A stretch of 64,000 nt of DNA from a phage. The translations under genes and the position numbers were made by a program. Below, piece by piece: positions 56,403 through 61,143 of the stretch. Under the pieces are notes generated by a model. That model was not told where the DNA came from. It ran no database searches and saw nothing but the letters and a program-made list of their open reading frames with translations. The DNA lies in sequence record PZ386978.1. One strand, written 5' to 3'. Positions within the stretch are counted from its first letter, which is position 1. The number at the start of each line of letters is the position of its first letter.

Positions 56403-57818
56403 ATGAGCGAATTATTTAAACATGCGCACCTTCATGCAGGTCGAACTGAAAATGTTGCTGTAAACCATACTTCATCAATGTCTGCTCTTGTAGACTTTTA
56501 CAAAGCTGCTGGTTCAAGCCGTAGCAATGTAGAAATCTTACCAGACCTGTTCTACAAAGCTTTGCGTGAGGATGTTGATGTTGCAGTTCGTATTTTACTG
56601 CATATGCGAGATGTACGAGAAGGTATGGGTGAGCGTAAAGCCTTCAGAACTGTTTTACTTCAAGCAATCGAAGACAAAGTTTTAGAGCCTACACAGGTTC
56701 TTCGCATTATGGATAAGATTGCAGAACTTGGTCGTTTTGATGACTTCAAAATCTTCGTAGGTACTCGTTTCGAGACAGATGCCTTCAAACATTTAGAAGC
56801 AGCATTACTAGACCCTGCAACAGCAGGTTTGGCAGCTAAGTGGTTACCACGAGTCAAACCACGTCATAAACAGTTTGTAAAACGTTTCTGCAAGTTTGCC
56901 AACTTGAGTGAGAAAGAGTACCGTACACTGTTGTCTGCACTATCTGATACAGTTGAGCAAAAAATCTCTGCTAATGAGTTTGGTAAGATTGATTACAGTA
57001 AGATTCCTTCACTTGCTGCTGCACGTTACCAAAAACTGTTTAACCGTAAAGATGGAGAACGCTACAAAGCTTACATTGAGTCTTTATCAAAGGGTGAGGC
57101 TAAGATTAATGCTGGTGCTGTTTACCCATACGATGTGATTAAATCTGTCAAGCATGGTAATGCAGATGTTGCTAATGAGCAGTGGAAAGCACTACCAAAC
57201 TGGATGGCAGAGGGTGAAAACATCTTATGTATGACTGATGTTTCAAGCTCAATGTCTTGGGTGAATTTTGGTTCAATCACTGCTCTTGATATTGGCGTAT
57301 CACTTGCCTTGTATGTAGCAGAACACAATACAGGTTGCTTTAAGGATGAGTTGATGGTTTATTCAACAAACCCTCACTTCATTGAACTGAGTGGTGATTT
57401 ACGAAACCGTCATCGTCAGGTGATGCGATACGTTGAATATGGCTCAACTAACTTACAAGCAGCTTTTGAACGCATTCTTGAGATAGGTAAGAGAAACAAC
57501 TTGACTCAGAAAGATATGCCAAGTAAGCTTATCATCTTCTCCGATATGGAGTTCAATCAGGTTGATGGAGCTAACGGTCGTACAAACTTTGAAGCAATTC
57601 AGAGTAAGTACAAGAAAGCTGGATACGAAATGCCACAACTGGTATTCTGGTACTTAGCAAACCGTAATGGTACTTGCGAAGTATCTGTTAAGGATAACGG
57701 TGTAGCAATGGTATCTGGTTTCTCTCCAGCCACTTTAAAAGCTCTGCTTGGTGGTGAGAAGTTTGACCCAATCAGCGTAATGCTCAAAGCAGTAATGATT
57801 GACCGTTATATCTGGTAA
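56403..57818 (+). CDS. vWA-domain protein (MIDAS DxSxS), possibly Ro60/TROVE-like
   Basis: 471 aa; MIDAS-like CMTDVSSSM in C-terminal half; helical N-terminal half; TROVE assignment is a guess. Confidence 0.45.
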   Translation: MSELFKHAHLHAGRTENVAVNHTSSMSALVDFYKAAGSSRSNVEILPDLFYKALREDVDVAVRILLHMRDVREGMGERKAFRTVLLQAIEDKVLEPTQVLRIMDKIAELGRFDDFKIFVGTRFETDAFKHLEAALLDPATAGLAAKWLPRVKPRHKQFVKRFCKFANLSEKEYRTLLSALSDTVEQKISANEFGKIDYSKIPSLAAARYQKLFNRKDGERYKAYIESLSKGEAKINAGAVYPYDVIKSVKHGNADVANEQWKALPNWMAEGENILCMTDVSSSMSWVNFGSITALDIGVSLALYVAEHNTGCFKDELMVYSTNPHFIELSGDLRNRHRQVMRYVEYGSTNLQAAFERILEIGKRNNLTQKDMPSKLIIFSDMEFNQVDGANGRTNFEAIQSKYKKAGYEMPQLVFWYLANRNGTCEVSVKDNGVAMVSGFSPATLKALLGGEKFDPISVMLKAVMIDRYIW

Positions 57819-57836: not shown

Positions 57837-57865
57837 TTGACAATGTGTTTGATACCCTTTAATAT
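57837..57865 (+). promoter_or_regulatory. sigma70-like promoter upstream of tRNA cluster
   Basis: TTGACA 57837-57842, 17 nt spacer, TAATAT 57860-57865. Confidence 0.55.
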
Positions 57866-57927: not shown

Positions 57928-57958
57928 TTGACAATCACTAAAAAATAATGTTAAAGTG
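57928..57958 (+). promoter_or_regulatory. possible second promoter upstream of tRNA cluster
   Basis: TTGACA 57928-57933 with weak -10 candidates (TTAAAG/TAAAGT). Confidence 0.35.
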
Positions 57959-58142: not shown

Positions 58143-58152
58143 CCAGTTTTGA

Positions 58153-58226
58153 CAGAAGACCAATTACAGCAAACTTAATCTTATTCATCTGAAGGTAAAT
58201 CGGACAAAGAAGAGATTTGGTCTGGT
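58153..58226 (+). ncRNA. conserved stem-closed element, copy 1
   Basis: CAGAAGACCAATTACAGCAA...ATTTGGTCTGG; stem AGACCAA/TTGGTCT. Confidence 0.4.
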
Positions 58227-58237
58227 CATTAAGAATT

Positions 58238-58310
58238 GCGGGTATAGAGAAAGGGCGTCTCACATGTCTCATTAGCATGGTATCGGCAGGTTCGACTCCT
58301 GCACCCGCCT
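58238..58310 (+). tRNA. tRNA-Met family (anticodon CAU; initiator, elongator or Ile-lysidine undetermined)
   Basis: D-stem GAGA/TCTC, anticodon stem CATGT/GCATG with loop CTCATTA, T-arm GCAGGTTCGACTCCTGC; acceptor boundary ambiguous by 1 nt. Confidence 0.6.
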
Positions 58311-58317
58311 CCAAATT

Positions 58318-58384
58318 TACAGAAGACCGTTTACAGCAATATTTATTAAATTTTTAGCGGAAAAATTGAAAGATACGGTCTGGT
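58318..58384 (+). ncRNA. conserved stem-closed element, copy 2
   Basis: CAGAAGACCGTTTACAGCAA...ATACGGTCTGG; stem AGACCGT/ACGGTCT (compensatory to copy 1). Confidence 0.4.
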
Positions 58385-58396
58385 AATACTAAACAT

Positions 58397-58470
58397 GGTT
58401 AGGAAGCACATAAGGTATGTGCGGTCGCCTGTTAAGCGAATGGCACAGGGTTCGAATCCCTGACTAACCG
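58397..58470 (+). tRNA. tRNA-Asn (anticodon GUU)
   Basis: Acceptor GGTTAGG/ACTAACC, D-stem GCAC/GTGC, anticodon loop CTGTTAA, T-arm CAGGGTTCGAATCCCTG, CCA encoded. Confidence 0.7.
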
Positions 58471-58542
58471 CCAAATTTAGGAGAGAAGCGATTGCTCACC
58501 GATTTGTAAGGTGCAAGTCCTTAGCCTGAATAGAAATTAAAT

Positions 58543-58627
58543 GTGTCGTTATCCCGTAGATGGTAGCGGTGGGGACTGTAAATCCCTTGTCATTGAGACT
58601 CGGTAGGTTCGACTCCTACACGGCACA
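58543..58627 (+). tRNA. tRNA-Tyr (anticodon GUA), long variable arm
   Basis: 85 nt; acceptor GTGTCGT/ACGGCAC, anticodon loop CTGTAAA, long variable arm, T-arm GTAGGTTCGACTCCTAC, CCA encoded. Confidence 0.65.
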
Positions 58628-58635
58628 CCAATAAA

Positions 58636-58710
58636 GGTTATGTAGTTTAATTTGGTTAAAATACTCCCCTGTCACGGGAGATGATGAGGGTTCAAATCCA
58701 TTCGTAACCG
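58636..58710 (+). tRNA. tRNA-Asp (anticodon GUC)
   Basis: Acceptor GGTTATG/CGTAACC, anticodon stem CTCCC/GGGAG with loop CTGTCAC, T-loop TTCAAAT, CCA encoded. Confidence 0.65.
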
Positions 58711-58773
58711 CCAATTTTGAGAGGGCTATTTAGCCCCTCCCTTAAAGAGTTCTTACGAGTATTCTTTAAAGGA

Positions 58774-58849
58774 GCAGAAGACCAAATACAGCAAGTTACT
58801 TAAAATTTCAAGCCAATTTAATTTTGAAAAATTTAAAACTTGGTCTGGC
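58774..58849 (+). ncRNA. conserved stem-closed element, copy 3
   Basis: CAGAAGACCAAATACAGCAA...CTTGGTCTGG; stem AGACCAA/TTGGTCT. Confidence 0.4.
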
Positions 58850-58860
58850 TCAACAAATTT

Positions 58861-58993
58861 ACAGAAGACCGTTTACAGCAAAACTTAAACAATCTATTTC
58901 TCGGTAAAGAAAAGGCGAAGGTTCGATTCCTTCACTCGGCAGATGTCGAGTTGGTGTAATGGTAGCACTTAAGATGATAAACAACGGTCTGGT
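58861..58993 (+). ncRNA. conserved stem-closed element, copy 4, with an embedded permuted tRNA-like segment
   Basis: CAGAAGACCGTTTACAGCAA...AACGGTCTGG; interior has T-arm GAAGGTTCGATTCCTTC + ACTCGGC directly followed by GTCGAGT + D-arm-like GGTGTAATGGTAGCAC. Confidence 0.4.
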
Positions 58994-59136
58994 AATTATC
59001 TTTGTAGATAAGTTATTAAGCTTACCTGTGAGTATGCGACCACAAAGGGTGAAGGGTAAATTCTAGATTTAAACCCAAAAAGGCACATCGCTACAGACCT
59101 TAAGCAAGTCTGGGTAGCTTATCTACAAAGATAATT
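58994..59136 (+). repeat. 19 bp perfect inverted repeat enclosing ~105 nt
   Basis: AATTATCTTTGTAGATAAG at 58994-59012 and its exact reverse complement CTTATCTACAAAGATAATT at 59118-59136. Confidence 0.6.
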
Positions 59137-59298: not shown

Positions 59299-59371
59299 GC
59301 TGGTATAGTTAAGAAGGTTATAACACTCCCCTGATAAGGGAACATCGGTGGTTCGATTCCACCTACCAGTA
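59299..59371 (+). tRNA. tRNA-Ile (anticodon GAU)
   Basis: Acceptor GCTGGTA/TACCAGT, D-stem GTTA/TAAC, anticodon loop CTGATAA, T-arm GGTGGTTCGATTCCACC, CCA encoded. Confidence 0.7.
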
Positions 59372-59389
59372 CCAATTTCAATAAAGTTG

Positions 59390-59418
59390 TTGACATTGAG
59401 ATGTGACTACTTTATAGT
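59390..59418 (+). promoter_or_regulatory. sigma70-like promoter inside tRNA cluster
   Basis: TTGACA 59390-59395, 17 nt spacer, TATAGT 59413-59418. Confidence 0.55.
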
Positions 59419-59622
59419 AACCTTAGTTTTCGTTGCGTAGCGTCTATTTTGCAAATTTAAAATAAATGCAAACGACAATGTTTTTCTGGCAGTAGCTTGA
59501 TAGGCTAAACACCAGTGAGGTCTTCCAATCCCTCATCAAAGAATTTGGCGTACTAGCCCACGGTATGATTAATAAGGTGGGCATCTTTAAGGGCTTTCTA
59601 AGAGAGTCTTTAAAGATAATTA

Positions 59623-59701
59623 CGGGGCGTATCTCAGCTGTCTTCTAAACAGCCGTTAATCGAGTAAGTGGAGTATGCGGGTTCGAGTCCTGCCGCCTCG
59701 A
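59623..59701 (+). ncRNA. atypical tRNA-like gene (acceptor + T-arm + anticodon-like hairpin with loop CTTCTAA; no recognisable D-arm)
   Basis: Acceptor CGGGGCG/CGCCTCG, T-arm GCGGGTTCGAGTCCTGC, hairpin GCTGT-CTTCTAA-ACAGC (would read UCU, Arg), 22 nt extra segment, CCA encoded. Confidence 0.4.
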
Positions 59702-59718
59702 CCAATTTTGGAGAAATC

Positions 59719-60066
59719 ATGAAAACTTGTATTAGGTGCAAACTCAGCAAGGATGAAAATGATTTCTACATGAAAGATGGTAGGAGAACTCATTCATACT
59801 GTAAAAAGTGTGTTAATGAGCAAACCATAGAAAGACAAAGAGCACTTAAACTCTCAGCTATTGAGTACAAAGGTGGGGTTTGTCACGATTGTGGTAAAAA
59901 GTATCATCCAGCAGTGTATGACTTCCATCATTTGAATCCTTCAGATAAAGATTTTAACATTGGTCATAGGAAAAGCCTTAAGTTCTCTCAAGAACTAAAA
60001 GATGAACTTGACAAATGTGTTTTGCTATGTTCAAATTGCCATAGGGTAAGACATGCAAAGTATTAG
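59719..60066 (+). CDS. HNH endonuclease within tRNA cluster
   Basis: Start at MKTCIRCK with GGAG SD (track start 59668 overlaps the upstream tRNA-like gene); zinc-finger cysteines and HNH core DFHHLNP...CSNCHRVRH. Confidence 0.7.
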   Translation: MKTCIRCKLSKDENDFYMKDGRRTHSYCKKCVNEQTIERQRALKLSAIEYKGGVCHDCGKKYHPAVYDFHHLNPSDKDFNIGHRKSLKFSQELKDELDKCVLLCSNCHRVRHAKY

Positions 60067-60203: not shown

Positions 60204-60283
60204 GTGGGACGATGTTAAGACTCTAAGGCATGAGCAACGGCCTCCAAAACCGTTTCAAAGGGGTTCAACTCCTCCGTCCCATG
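60204..60283 (+). tRNA. tRNA-Trp (anticodon CCA), 5' boundary uncertain
   Basis: Anticodon loop CTCCAAA, T-loop TTCAACT, acceptor GTGGGAC/GTCCCAT, CCA encoded; D-region longer than canonical. Confidence 0.5.
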
Positions 60284-60387: not shown

Positions 60388-60644
60388 CCTAATAAGATTT
60401 AAAGCCAAGCTTCATTCGGATGTTGCTTTGGTATCACTCGTGTATTGTCGTACACACTGATAAAACACTTAGTAGGTGTCACGGAGAAGAGATAATATCA
60501 AGCTCTCCAAAGGTTCTAGTCACCGGATTAAACAAGACTATGCAAAGACCTTTTTAGGTCTTTTTAGAGGGCTTCTAAGGTTATTACAGCTTGTTGTGGA
60601 ACCTTGTTGCTTAGGTTCTTAGAAGTTCTCTAAAAAGATTTAAT

Positions 60645-61054: not shown

Positions 61055-61143
61055 CAGAGGTCAAGTGAAAGACCGCTGGTGTCAACTGAAGACCGTAACA
61101 AATTCCACGGAGTTGAGTTAGCGGCACAACTTCAGACCTCTTT
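61055..61143 (+). ncRNA. large hairpin element between tRNAs
   Basis: Outer stem CAGAGGTC / GACCTCTT enclosing ~75 nt that contains CTGAAGACCGTAACAA (related to the CAGAAGACC elements) and inner stem TGAAG/CTTCA. Confidence 0.35.

Follow-up and report, generated by a model that had tools for sequence, protein, structure and literature searches.

Four stem-closed RNA elements in the tRNA array of a Felix O1-like phage are probable Y-RNA-like partners of a divergent Ro60-like protein

What are the four stem-closed elements that interrupt the tRNA array of a 64,000-nucleotide (nt) stretch of phage DNA (sequence record PZ386978.1; the whole of this stretch is called the window below)? The window comes from a Felix O1-like myovirus, its tRNA region being 99.3% identical to that of VpaE1_ev108 and 98.7% identical to that of Bas63/JohannRWettstein, and the elements sit among 25 tRNA genes, 3-9 nt from tRNA ends. 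They are unannotated in every record inspected, and some records place opposite-strand open reading frames (ORFs) over them. A preliminary description, made from the letters of the window, had drawn attention to their compensatory closing stems and proposed small stable RNAs, tRNA-processing scaffolds or targets of a nearby HNH endonuclease. Particles of Ro60 and Y RNA, whose function is debated, have been described in animals, in about 5% of bacteria and in a few phages. The analysis reported here makes it likely that the four elements are small non-coding, Y-RNA-like partners of a divergent Ro60-like protein encoded just upstream (56403-57818), and that they are released from a tRNA precursor.

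The four copies, with helices given in base pairs (bp), were delimited as follows.

58150-58228, + strand: copy 1, short candidate Y-like RNA; outer helix 58150-53/58225-28, AGA 58154-56, 7-bp stem 58157-63/58217-23, spacer TTA, CAGCAA 58167-72, G 58224.
58317-58386, + strand: copy 2, short candidate Y-like RNA; outer helix 58317-20/58383-86, stem 58324-30/58375-81, CAGCAA 58334-39, G 58382.
58772-58851, + strand: copy 3, short candidate Y-like RNA; outer helix 58772-75/58848-51, stem 58779-85/58840-46, spacer ATA, CAGCAA 58789-94, G 58847.
58859-58995, + strand: copy 4, candidate YrlA-type Y-like RNA; outer helix 58859-62/58992-95, stem 58866-72/58984-90, CAGCAA 58876-81, G 58991.

The 5' region of the copies reads (C)AGA-AGACCNN-NUA-CAGCAA. 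Copies 1 and 3 have AGACCAA/TTGGTCT as their 7-bp inner stem, copies 2 and 4 AGACCGT/ACGGTCT; the two states lie two paired substitutions apart. The inner stem is enclosed by a covarying 4-bp outer helix (TGAC/GTCA, TTAC/GTAA, GAGC/GCTC and TTAC/GTAA in copies 1-4, in that order). The break between the two helices is asymmetric, with AGA on the 5' side and a single G on the 3' side. The invariant core is CAGCAA, placed 3 nt past the 7-bp stem (spacer TTA or ATA), and the loops measure 35-101 nt. In copies 1-3 the loop carries a short A/U hairpin and no tRNA-like domain. The sequence AGAAGACCNNNTACAGCAA occurs exactly four times in the window, always on the + strand (58154, 58321, 58776 and 58863), against 0.04 occurrences expected from shuffles. 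When the window was scanned on both strands with a definition drawn only from other phages (7-bp stem, 3 nt, CAGCAA, 12-170 nt, the complementary strand, then G), exactly the four copies qualified in 64 kb, and random Markov sequences averaged 0.56 qualifying sites, with at most 3 in any of 200 trials. Copies 2 and 4 share 94% identity over 34 nt and are recent duplicates.

Taken alone, the window is weak evidence for a selected structure, because it offers no more than two stem states, one pair of copies (2 and 4) arose by recent duplication and the folding scores are unremarkable; the strong evidence comes from relatives. In three related loci (L047, L068 and L031) the entire loop of copy 1 is exchanged with the stem and CAGCAA retained, and in two others (L046 and L065) the outer helix of copy 2 shows the compensatory change TTAC/GTAA to TTGC/GCAA.

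The proposed protein partner is encoded upstream of the array on the same strand.

56403-57818, + strand: gene for the Ro60-like protein, 471 amino acids, proposed partner (Pfam, PHROG, AlphaFold2, Foldseek and synteny).

The ORF matches Pfam DUF2828 and DUF7788 and belongs to PHROG 850, which is named 'RNA-binding protein'; annotations of the gene read 'vWFA protein' or 'RNA-binding protein'. Searches of the PDB sequences with phmmer and with a profile found no Ro60 chain, nor a match to any PDB chain; the kinship of the protein to Ro60 is visible by fold comparison only. An AlphaFold2 model was built from a 37-sequence alignment (predicted local distance difference test score 87.9, predicted template modelling score 0.88) and compared with the PDB by Foldseek. 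The top 12 entries were Ro60 proteins only, with the modelled protein aligned over its entire length, and had expectation values (E) of 4e-8 to 2e-6 and template modelling (TM) scores of 0.5-0.65; they included Thermus phage phiLo Ro60 (the best), Xenopus Ro60 and Deinococcus Rsr, and lower matches covered the von Willebrand factor A (vWA) domain only. A MIDAS-like DVSSSM motif (MIDAS, metal ion-dependent adhesion site) is present, in which D279, S281 and S283 are invariant. As modelled, the protein is predicted to have the make-up expected of a Ro60 protein, namely a HEAT-repeat ring with a C-terminal vWA domain bearing a MIDAS motif.

By synteny the gene is the ortholog of Bas63 gp130 (bas63_0130). 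A preprint on the PhageMaP method described Bas63 gp130 as structurally Ro60-like and found that its deletion sensitises Bas63 to the Ppl defence system, and its authors guessed that Y RNAs are hidden among the tRNAs adjoining the gp130 gene (PMC11482910). In the window, copy 1 begins 332 nt past the stop codon of the gene and copy 4 ends 1177 nt past it, all on the + strand. Homologues of the protein fall into 2347 protein clusters by homology search and are found in 710 phage records, among them mycobacteriophages (where the annotation reads 'Ro-like RNA binding protein') and phages of Yersinia, Vibrio, Aeromonas, Campylobacter, Listeria, Staphylococcus and Enterococcus.

The stem and its CAGCAA core were then followed across these homologous loci, using a fixed definition of the module (7 bp of stem, of which no more than one pair may be G-U, followed by exactly 3 nt, CAGCAA, 12-170 nt and the complementary strand), with loci oriented on the gene. 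Two independent locus sets were used, consisting of 75 viral contigs (39-47% protein identity) and 80 bacterial or metagenome-assembled genome (MAG) contigs. Within 600 nt of the gene in the viral contigs, the stem was present at 57 of 118 CAGCAA sites on the gene strand versus none of 16 on the opposite strand; background elsewhere in this set was 3-8%, and control hexamers gave counts of 0-7. The bacterial/MAG contigs gave 105 of 160 sites versus 3 of 36 on the opposite strand, with control hexamers at 1-11; the highest control was the one-letter variant CAGCAT, a count that may include real variant modules. At least one module was present in 43 of the 75 viral and 51 of the 80 bacterial/MAG loci. 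The distinct modules number 258 and their stems have 145 different sequences; each of the seven pairs is found as many pair types and changes on both sides. The percentage of paired positions is circular in this set, the sequences having been selected for pairing, and the stem pair count was used only for the diversity of pair types. A G comes directly after the stem in 84% of the modules, about 73% open with an A-U pair, UUA is the favoured spacer, and an A-rich strand precedes the 3' half of the stem. A covariance model (R1) built from 107 non-Felix modules with truncated loops retrieved only copy 2 (E 4.7); its local-end states swallowed CAGCAA and long loops were penalised, a failure that reflects the method and does not speak against membership.

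The diversity of the stems bears on one alternative, that the elements are selfish repeats resembling miniature inverted-repeat transposable elements, with terminal inverted repeats, or recognition sites of the HNH homing endonuclease. Multiple copies, inverted-repeat ends and an HNH ORF at 59710-60066 would suit such a reading. It is hard to reconcile with the strict strand specificity, with stems that vary freely between phages while retaining their pairing, and are in this way conserved as pairs and not as sequence, or with HNH insertions in relatives, which replace tRNA genes and leave the elements intact; no target-site duplications were seen in the flanks listed by the scripts, which included no dedicated test for them. 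This alternative is considered highly improbable.

Position relative to tRNA genes bears on a second. Of 38 viral loci lacking tRNA genes within 5 kb, 27 carry the module. The module goes with the Ro60-like gene and not with tRNAs. Were the elements spacers or processing helices of the tRNA precursor, guiding RNase III, RNase E or RNase P or insulating tRNAs and having no function of their own, their position between tRNA genes and within a few nucleotides of tRNA ends would be expected, and stable RNAs in the tRNA cluster of phage T4 would offer a precedent. The 27 loci just mentioned still have the module by the Ro60-like gene, most tRNA junctions in the window are without such an element, the T4 genes rnaC and rnaD are without the module, and an invariant single-stranded CAGCAA and a selected tRNA-like domain (see below) would be left unexplained, so that this function is thought quite unlikely.

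Individual loci illustrate how variable the placement is, the modules lying upstream or downstream of the gene depending on the locus. Aeromonas phage 4_4572 has a tandem run of at least eight copies, of which seven satisfy the fixed definition and one is a CAACAA variant, and the run ends 14 nt before the start codon. Yersinia phage P778 has three modules interspersed with the downstream tRNAs, and one of the three bears a T arm; in mycobacteriophage LilDestine three modules fill the 368-nt gap after the gene, a place free of tRNAs. Two modules lie upstream of the gene in Campylobacter phage CP30A, and three upstream in Listeria phage A511. The A511 locus (L076, 2465-3016 and 3669-3920) also holds a ROOL RNA-like match (87.5 bits, gathering score 99.1) between the tRNA genes and the Ro60-like gene gp57, with the three CAGCAA modules directly after it; large phage RNAs, tRNAs and the Ro60-like locus are clustered there.

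Upstream placement raises the possibility that the modules are cis-acting protein-binding sites in mRNA, autoregulatory operators or decoys that control the Ro60-like gene, and not free RNAs acting in trans. Many relatives carry modules directly upstream on the same strand, as A511 and CP30A do, and the last module of Aeromonas phage 4_4572 ends just before an AAAGGAG ribosome-binding site. The modules of the window, in contrast, lie downstream of the gene, past two promoter-like sites and two tRNA genes, and a cis role fits poorly with modules that are upstream or downstream by locus, reach eight tandem copies and carry a tRNA-like cargo under selection; the Y RNAs of Mycobacterium smegmatis are upstream of the Ro60-type gene too, yet are processed from a common precursor. 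As a general explanation, cis regulation is judged unlikely.

With these results, much of the preliminary description can be assessed. Its four elements with compensatory 7-bp closing stems are real and have the two stem states that it gave, and its reading of the paired substitutions as selected RNA structure holds, mainly through covariation in relatives. The folding and covariance analysis that it had proposed, on the copies and their phage homologues, found the pairing kept and the stem sequences diverse, and 'small stable RNAs' was the right class of explanation. Its suggestion of tRNA-processing scaffolds has to give way to the 27 of 38 tRNA-free viral loci (5 kb) with a module by the Ro60-like gene, and to mycobacteriophage LilDestine; that of HNH targets, to insertions in relatives that replace tRNA genes and not the elements.

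The same description had called the loops not tRNA-like, and for copy 4 this does not hold. The loop of copy 4, 101 nt long, has tRNA-like arms in permuted order (a T arm, then a closed acceptor-like stem of 7 bp, then a D arm), located by the minimum free energy (MFE) fold and further evidence as follows.

58897-58968, + strand: permuted tRNA-like domain in copy 4 (MFE fold, ARAGORN on un-permuted halves, relatives and RNAalifold).
58897-58912, + strand: V/anticodon-like hairpin, loop 6 nt (MFE fold).
58917-58933, + strand: T arm, GAAGG-TTCGATT-CCTTC (MFE fold).
58934-40/58945-51, + strand: closed 7-bp acceptor-like stem, loop AGAT (MFE fold).
58954-58968, + strand: D arm, GTGT-AATGGTA-GCAC (MFE fold).

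The order of the arms (V, T, closed acceptor stem, D) is that of YrlA and is found in copy 4 only. ARAGORN called no tRNA on copy 4 in its native order; at 90% of the default threshold it returned a cloverleaf from the two halves rejoined in tRNA order, and an un-permuted variant with a 7-nt loop was read as tRNA-Thr(GGU). The Rfam tRNA model (RF00005) gave a partial match only (15.5 bits, E 0.74). Among Felix-like relatives the T and D arms are constant, and the helix between them is wholly exchanged three ways (ACTCGGC-AGAT-GTCGAGT, ACACGT-TACG-GCGTGT and ACCCTTC-GCCAAACA-GAAGGGT).

For a wider comparison of the cargo, 21 diverse T-arm-bearing members were aligned, chosen only by closing stem and T-arm pattern. 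RNAalifold recovered the closing stem, the T arm, the acceptor-like stem and the D stem, with 19 of 21 pairs compensatory. Pairs were formed in 97% of cells, versus 61% in shuffles and 37-45% when partners were slid by 1-3 columns, and the covariation score was 0.93 versus 0.24 in shuffles. The test is non-circular for the acceptor-like and D stems, since these were not used in the selection. In its loop, copy 4 has a cloverleaf in circularly permuted form, a tRNA mimic strongly backed by covariation. A relative with the same architecture (L087, 4307-4407) gave a full-length, sub-threshold match to Rfam YrlA (39.1 bits, E 4.5e-5). In some other members (among them L122, 4734-4834, and L233, 2838-2930) a normal-order tRNA-like domain or a complete tRNA (tRNA-Thr UGU, 52.9 bits) lies inside the CAGCAA handle, L122 being an example with a complete tRNA, and in members of this kind the 7-bp closing stem stands in for an extended acceptor stem. 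Besides this domain, the preliminary description had overlooked the outer 4-bp helix, the CAGCAA core and the upstream Ro60-like gene, which is the decisive context.

A cloverleaf whose 3' half is encoded before its 5' half recalls the circularly permuted tRNA genes of Cyanidioschyzon merolae, and copy 4 might likewise give a functional tRNA after cutting and rejoining; the un-permuted cloverleaf and the tRNA-Thr(GGU) reading of the 7-nt-loop variant would agree with this. Unlike in C. merolae, copy 4 shows no sign of re-ligation, and its acceptor end is loop-closed and unconserved. The acceptor-like stem of the relatives is closed by arbitrary loops (AGAT, TACG or GCCAAACA) and its sequence is exchanged wholesale, for which reason there are no conserved identity elements and no conserved CCA end; the hairpin loop in the window has only 6 nt, and many family members are without a tRNA-like part. 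Bacteria, moreover, are not known to have a splicing endonuclease/ligase route. A functional permuted tRNA is accordingly regarded as very improbable.

The closest known relatives in design are the YrlA or Y RNA-like RNAs (RF02553; Chen et al. 2014, PMC4201824). As here, their genes are no more than 2 kb from that of a Ro60-type protein and share its strand, several paralogous RNAs occur per locus, their 5' and 3' ends pair, and in one RNA the arms run V, T, closed acceptor stem, D, the T and D arms being conserved and the acceptor stem variable. They are processed from a common precursor, and the same is proposed for the RNAs of the window. The differences are these: the window handle (7-bp helix, 3 nt, CAGCAA) is unlike the GNCGAAN0-1G of YrlA, which lies within a longer interrupted stem; the YrlA model of Rfam, with a gathering threshold of 69 bits, reaches 39 in the best relative and leaves the window copies undetected; and the partner in the window is a DUF2828/DUF7788 protein and not Pfam TROVE, with the RNAs embedded in a tRNA array. 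Thermus phage phiLo likewise combines a phage protein of Ro60 fold with adjacent small RNAs, Yrl1 and Yrl2, which the protein binds (PMC12135203; PDB 9KOP, 9L5Y), and its authors propose that phiLo Ro60 hijacks the host polynucleotide phosphorylase (PNPase). The phiLo RNAs were identified by a CGAA motif that is not present here, and the phiLo protein has about 15% identity to that of the window. Several Y RNAs per locus, one of them tRNA-like, and a common precursor are also described for Salmonella, M. smegmatis and Deinococcus radiodurans, as well as for phiLo (PMC12135203). In M. smegmatis the Y RNAs lie upstream of rsr and arise through processing of a common precursor, and YrlA, whose acceptor-like stem likewise measures 7 bp, is cleaved by RNase P and has CCA added to it.

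More distant systems share single features. Metazoan Y RNAs (RF00019) with Ro60/TROVE2 resemble the elements in having a terminal ring-binding helix and a variable effector-tethering loop, and in forming small paralogous families (Y1, Y3, Y4 and Y5); they differ in the bulged GGUCCGA helix, which is not in the window elements, in the lack of an Rfam match and in their biogenesis. The stable RNAs C and D of T4 (species 1 and 2) are also small, located in a tRNA cluster and co-transcribed and co-processed with phage tRNAs. They differ in having no CAGCAA-stem module, and no Ro60-like homologue is annotated in the 8 kb around the T4 tRNA cluster, the part of the T4 genome that was examined; as candidate relatives, rnaC and rnaD were rejected on the missing module. 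In the literature searched on DUF2828, on 'Ro-like RNA binding protein' and on Felixounavirus transcriptomes these RNAs are undescribed, although mycobacteriophage members may be contained in the supplementary tables of Chen et al. 2014 or in the review by Sim et al. 2020.

Several results weigh against calling the elements Y-RNA-like partners of the upstream protein. The Rfam Y_RNA and YrlA models match none of the four copies, even at E<=10 (5.8-kb scan; 58850-59005). The known Ro-binding motifs were not found in the elements: GGUCCGA is lacking, and GNCGAAN0-1G occurs once, in copy 4 only. No Pfam TROVE match was obtained for the protein, even at E<=10, and its structural similarity to Ro60 is moderate (TM 0.5-0.65). 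Single-sequence folding z-scores of the four copies are unexceptional (-0.75 to -1.93), about 40% of homologous loci are without a module under the strict definition, and in many relatives the modules lie in a possible 5' untranslated region of the protein gene, where a cis-regulatory role is possible. As to the GNCGAAN0-1G match, GGCGAAGG at 58914-58921, it sits at the junction of variable loop and T stem in copy 4, where relatives read GGAGAAGG or GGAGAGGG, and it is probably coincidental. More generally, in Rfam scans at gathering thresholds and at E<=10, covering the window and 12 related loci, no family covered the elements, the only matches being 'Dicty Class I' at chance level and sub-threshold YrlA in relatives.

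A handle unlike known Ro60-binding sites, with protein binding deduced from linkage, also lends itself to the view that these are free structured RNAs with another partner, for example a host tRNA enzyme, the linkage reflecting co-regulation only. This view has to contend with a linkage to the Ro60-like gene that holds over unrelated phage backbones and over hosts sharing no other neighbourhood, and it is held to be improbable. The five alternatives considered jointly account for about a quarter of the probability. Y-RNA-like partners of the Ro60-like protein are favoured by the predicted fold of that protein and its orthology to Bas63 gp130, by the linkage of the module to the gene, by the four sites of the window, by the tRNA mimicry of copy 4 and by the parallels with known Y RNA loci. 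Of the broad features of Y RNAs, the elements show a position near a Ro60-type gene on the same strand and a conserved terminal helix, and they lack the known Ro60-binding motif. They fall outside the curated families (Rfam Y_RNA and YrlA; Pfam TROVE), and the system looks like a Y RNA system and, by analogy, probably works like one.

The proposed route starts from three observations, the anatomy of the elements, the selection on their helices and their genomic linkage to the gene of a Ro60-fold protein. Each RNA would combine a constant handle, comprising the 7-bp end-pairing helix, the 3-nt spacer, single-stranded CAGCAA, an A-rich opposite strand, the G after the helix and, in Felix-like phages, the 4-bp outer helix, with a variable cargo loop that would be a short A/U hairpin in copies 1-3 and the permuted tRNA-like domain in copy 4. 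Transcription could begin at either of two sites.

57837-57865 and 57928-57957, + strand: two sigma-70-like promoter matches, both 10/12, upstream of the array of tRNAs and candidate Y-like RNAs.

No terminator-like site was found on the + strand between these matches (57837, 57928) and 59390. From the sequence, the RNAs and tRNAs would be transcribed as one precursor from the promoters at 57837 and 57928, and host enzymes that mature tRNAs (RNase P, RNase E and 3' exonucleases) would free the RNAs, whose ends may be shielded by the terminal helices. Copy 4 might itself be cut by RNase P at 58944/58945, a speculation prompted by M. smegmatis YrlA, which has a 7-bp acceptor-like stem and is cut by that enzyme. 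As the genomic linkage suggests, the Ro60-like protein would bind the handle; if Ro60/Y RNA/PNPase and YrlA are a guide, the cargo would tether the ring to other factors, and a tRNA-like cargo could recruit tRNA-recognising enzymes or act on them as a decoy. Going by the literature, the resulting ribonucleoprotein (RNP) may aid infection under host attack, as the Ppl sensitivity caused by deletion of Bas63 gene 130 would imply; this Bas63 gp130/Ppl result is the sole hint of a biological pay-off, and suggests one.

Other features of the region were recorded. Between 58994 and 59136 there is a long hairpin whose arms, 22 nt each, show 95% complementarity, and near its apex (about 59093-59113) ACAGACC-TTA-AGCAA-GTCTGG looks like a collapsed fifth copy of the module. 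The hairpin at 61055-61143, between tRNA-Thr and tRNA-Val, had been named in the preliminary description as related to the elements: it is indeed a stable hairpin (-30.7 kcal/mol, z -3.6), kept in Felix-like phages and containing GAAGACCGTAACAAA, but it is without the CAGCAA module and was rejected as a fifth copy. Short opposite-strand ORFs annotated 'hypothetical protein' cover candidate Y-like RNAs and tRNAs in Bas63 (L238, 3133-3407) and in Felix O1 (L001, 664-915 and 1459-1689), and are probably spurious.

At 59618-60061 a 444-nt segment stands in place of an 81-nt tRNA-Arg(UCU) segment of VpaE1_ev108 and Bas63, the closest relatives, and Felix O1 has the version of the window. It holds a tRNA-like sequence (59622-59703, without an ARAGORN call) followed by the HNH endonuclease ORF (59710-60066), and looks like a homing-endonuclease cassette that brings its own variant tRNA. 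HNH-type insertions were also found in Felix O1 (L001, 1907-2401, replacing tRNA-Met) and in phage nataliec (L002, 601-1035, replacing tRNA-Glu); the insertion sites are tRNA genes, not Y-like elements. Sub-threshold matches to transfer-messenger RNA (tmRNA) lie at 59316-59621 (permuted tmRNA 29.2 bits, E 0.004; tmRNA 15.4 bits), in a 245-nt non-coding stretch that starts at the best promoter-like site of the region (59390-59418), and Yersinia phage P778 likewise has a weak tmRNA match (L072, 9009-9149). A tRNA-like sequence with a CCA anticodon region is present at 60206-60280, with 23 bits only and no ARAGORN call, and a 26-nt inverted repeat at 60554-60643 lies upstream of tRNA-Leu.

A broader proposal can be offered only tentatively, and is more doubtful than the assignment of the four elements themselves. 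The stem and CAGCAA handle might mark a large class of RNAs, unrecognised before, that serve as RNP adaptors for Ro60-like proteins of the DUF2828/DUF7788 branch. Such RNAs would typically have a tRNA mimic (permuted or complete) as exchangeable cargo, and the class would extend over bacterial genomes and over hundreds of phages whose hosts are Gram-negative, Gram-positive or actinobacterial. The RNP might then act on the tRNA pool during infection, either as a decoy or sponge for defence nucleases that target tRNAs or as a platform for tRNA quality control or repair, and the RNAs too might be needed for the anti-Ppl phenotype. For the Ro60/Y RNA family, the finding suggests a far larger sister system, in which the RNA handle is different and the ring protein divergent, and it provides a simple annotation signature for an RNA family that is not in Rfam 15. 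For Felix O1-like phages, it names candidates for the RNAs whose presence was no more than a guess in the Bas63 study, in a tractable Escherichia coli phage whose protein phenotype, sensitivity to Ppl, is already known, and in which the roles of Y-type RNAs and of tRNA mimicry in the conflict between phage and host would thereby become testable.

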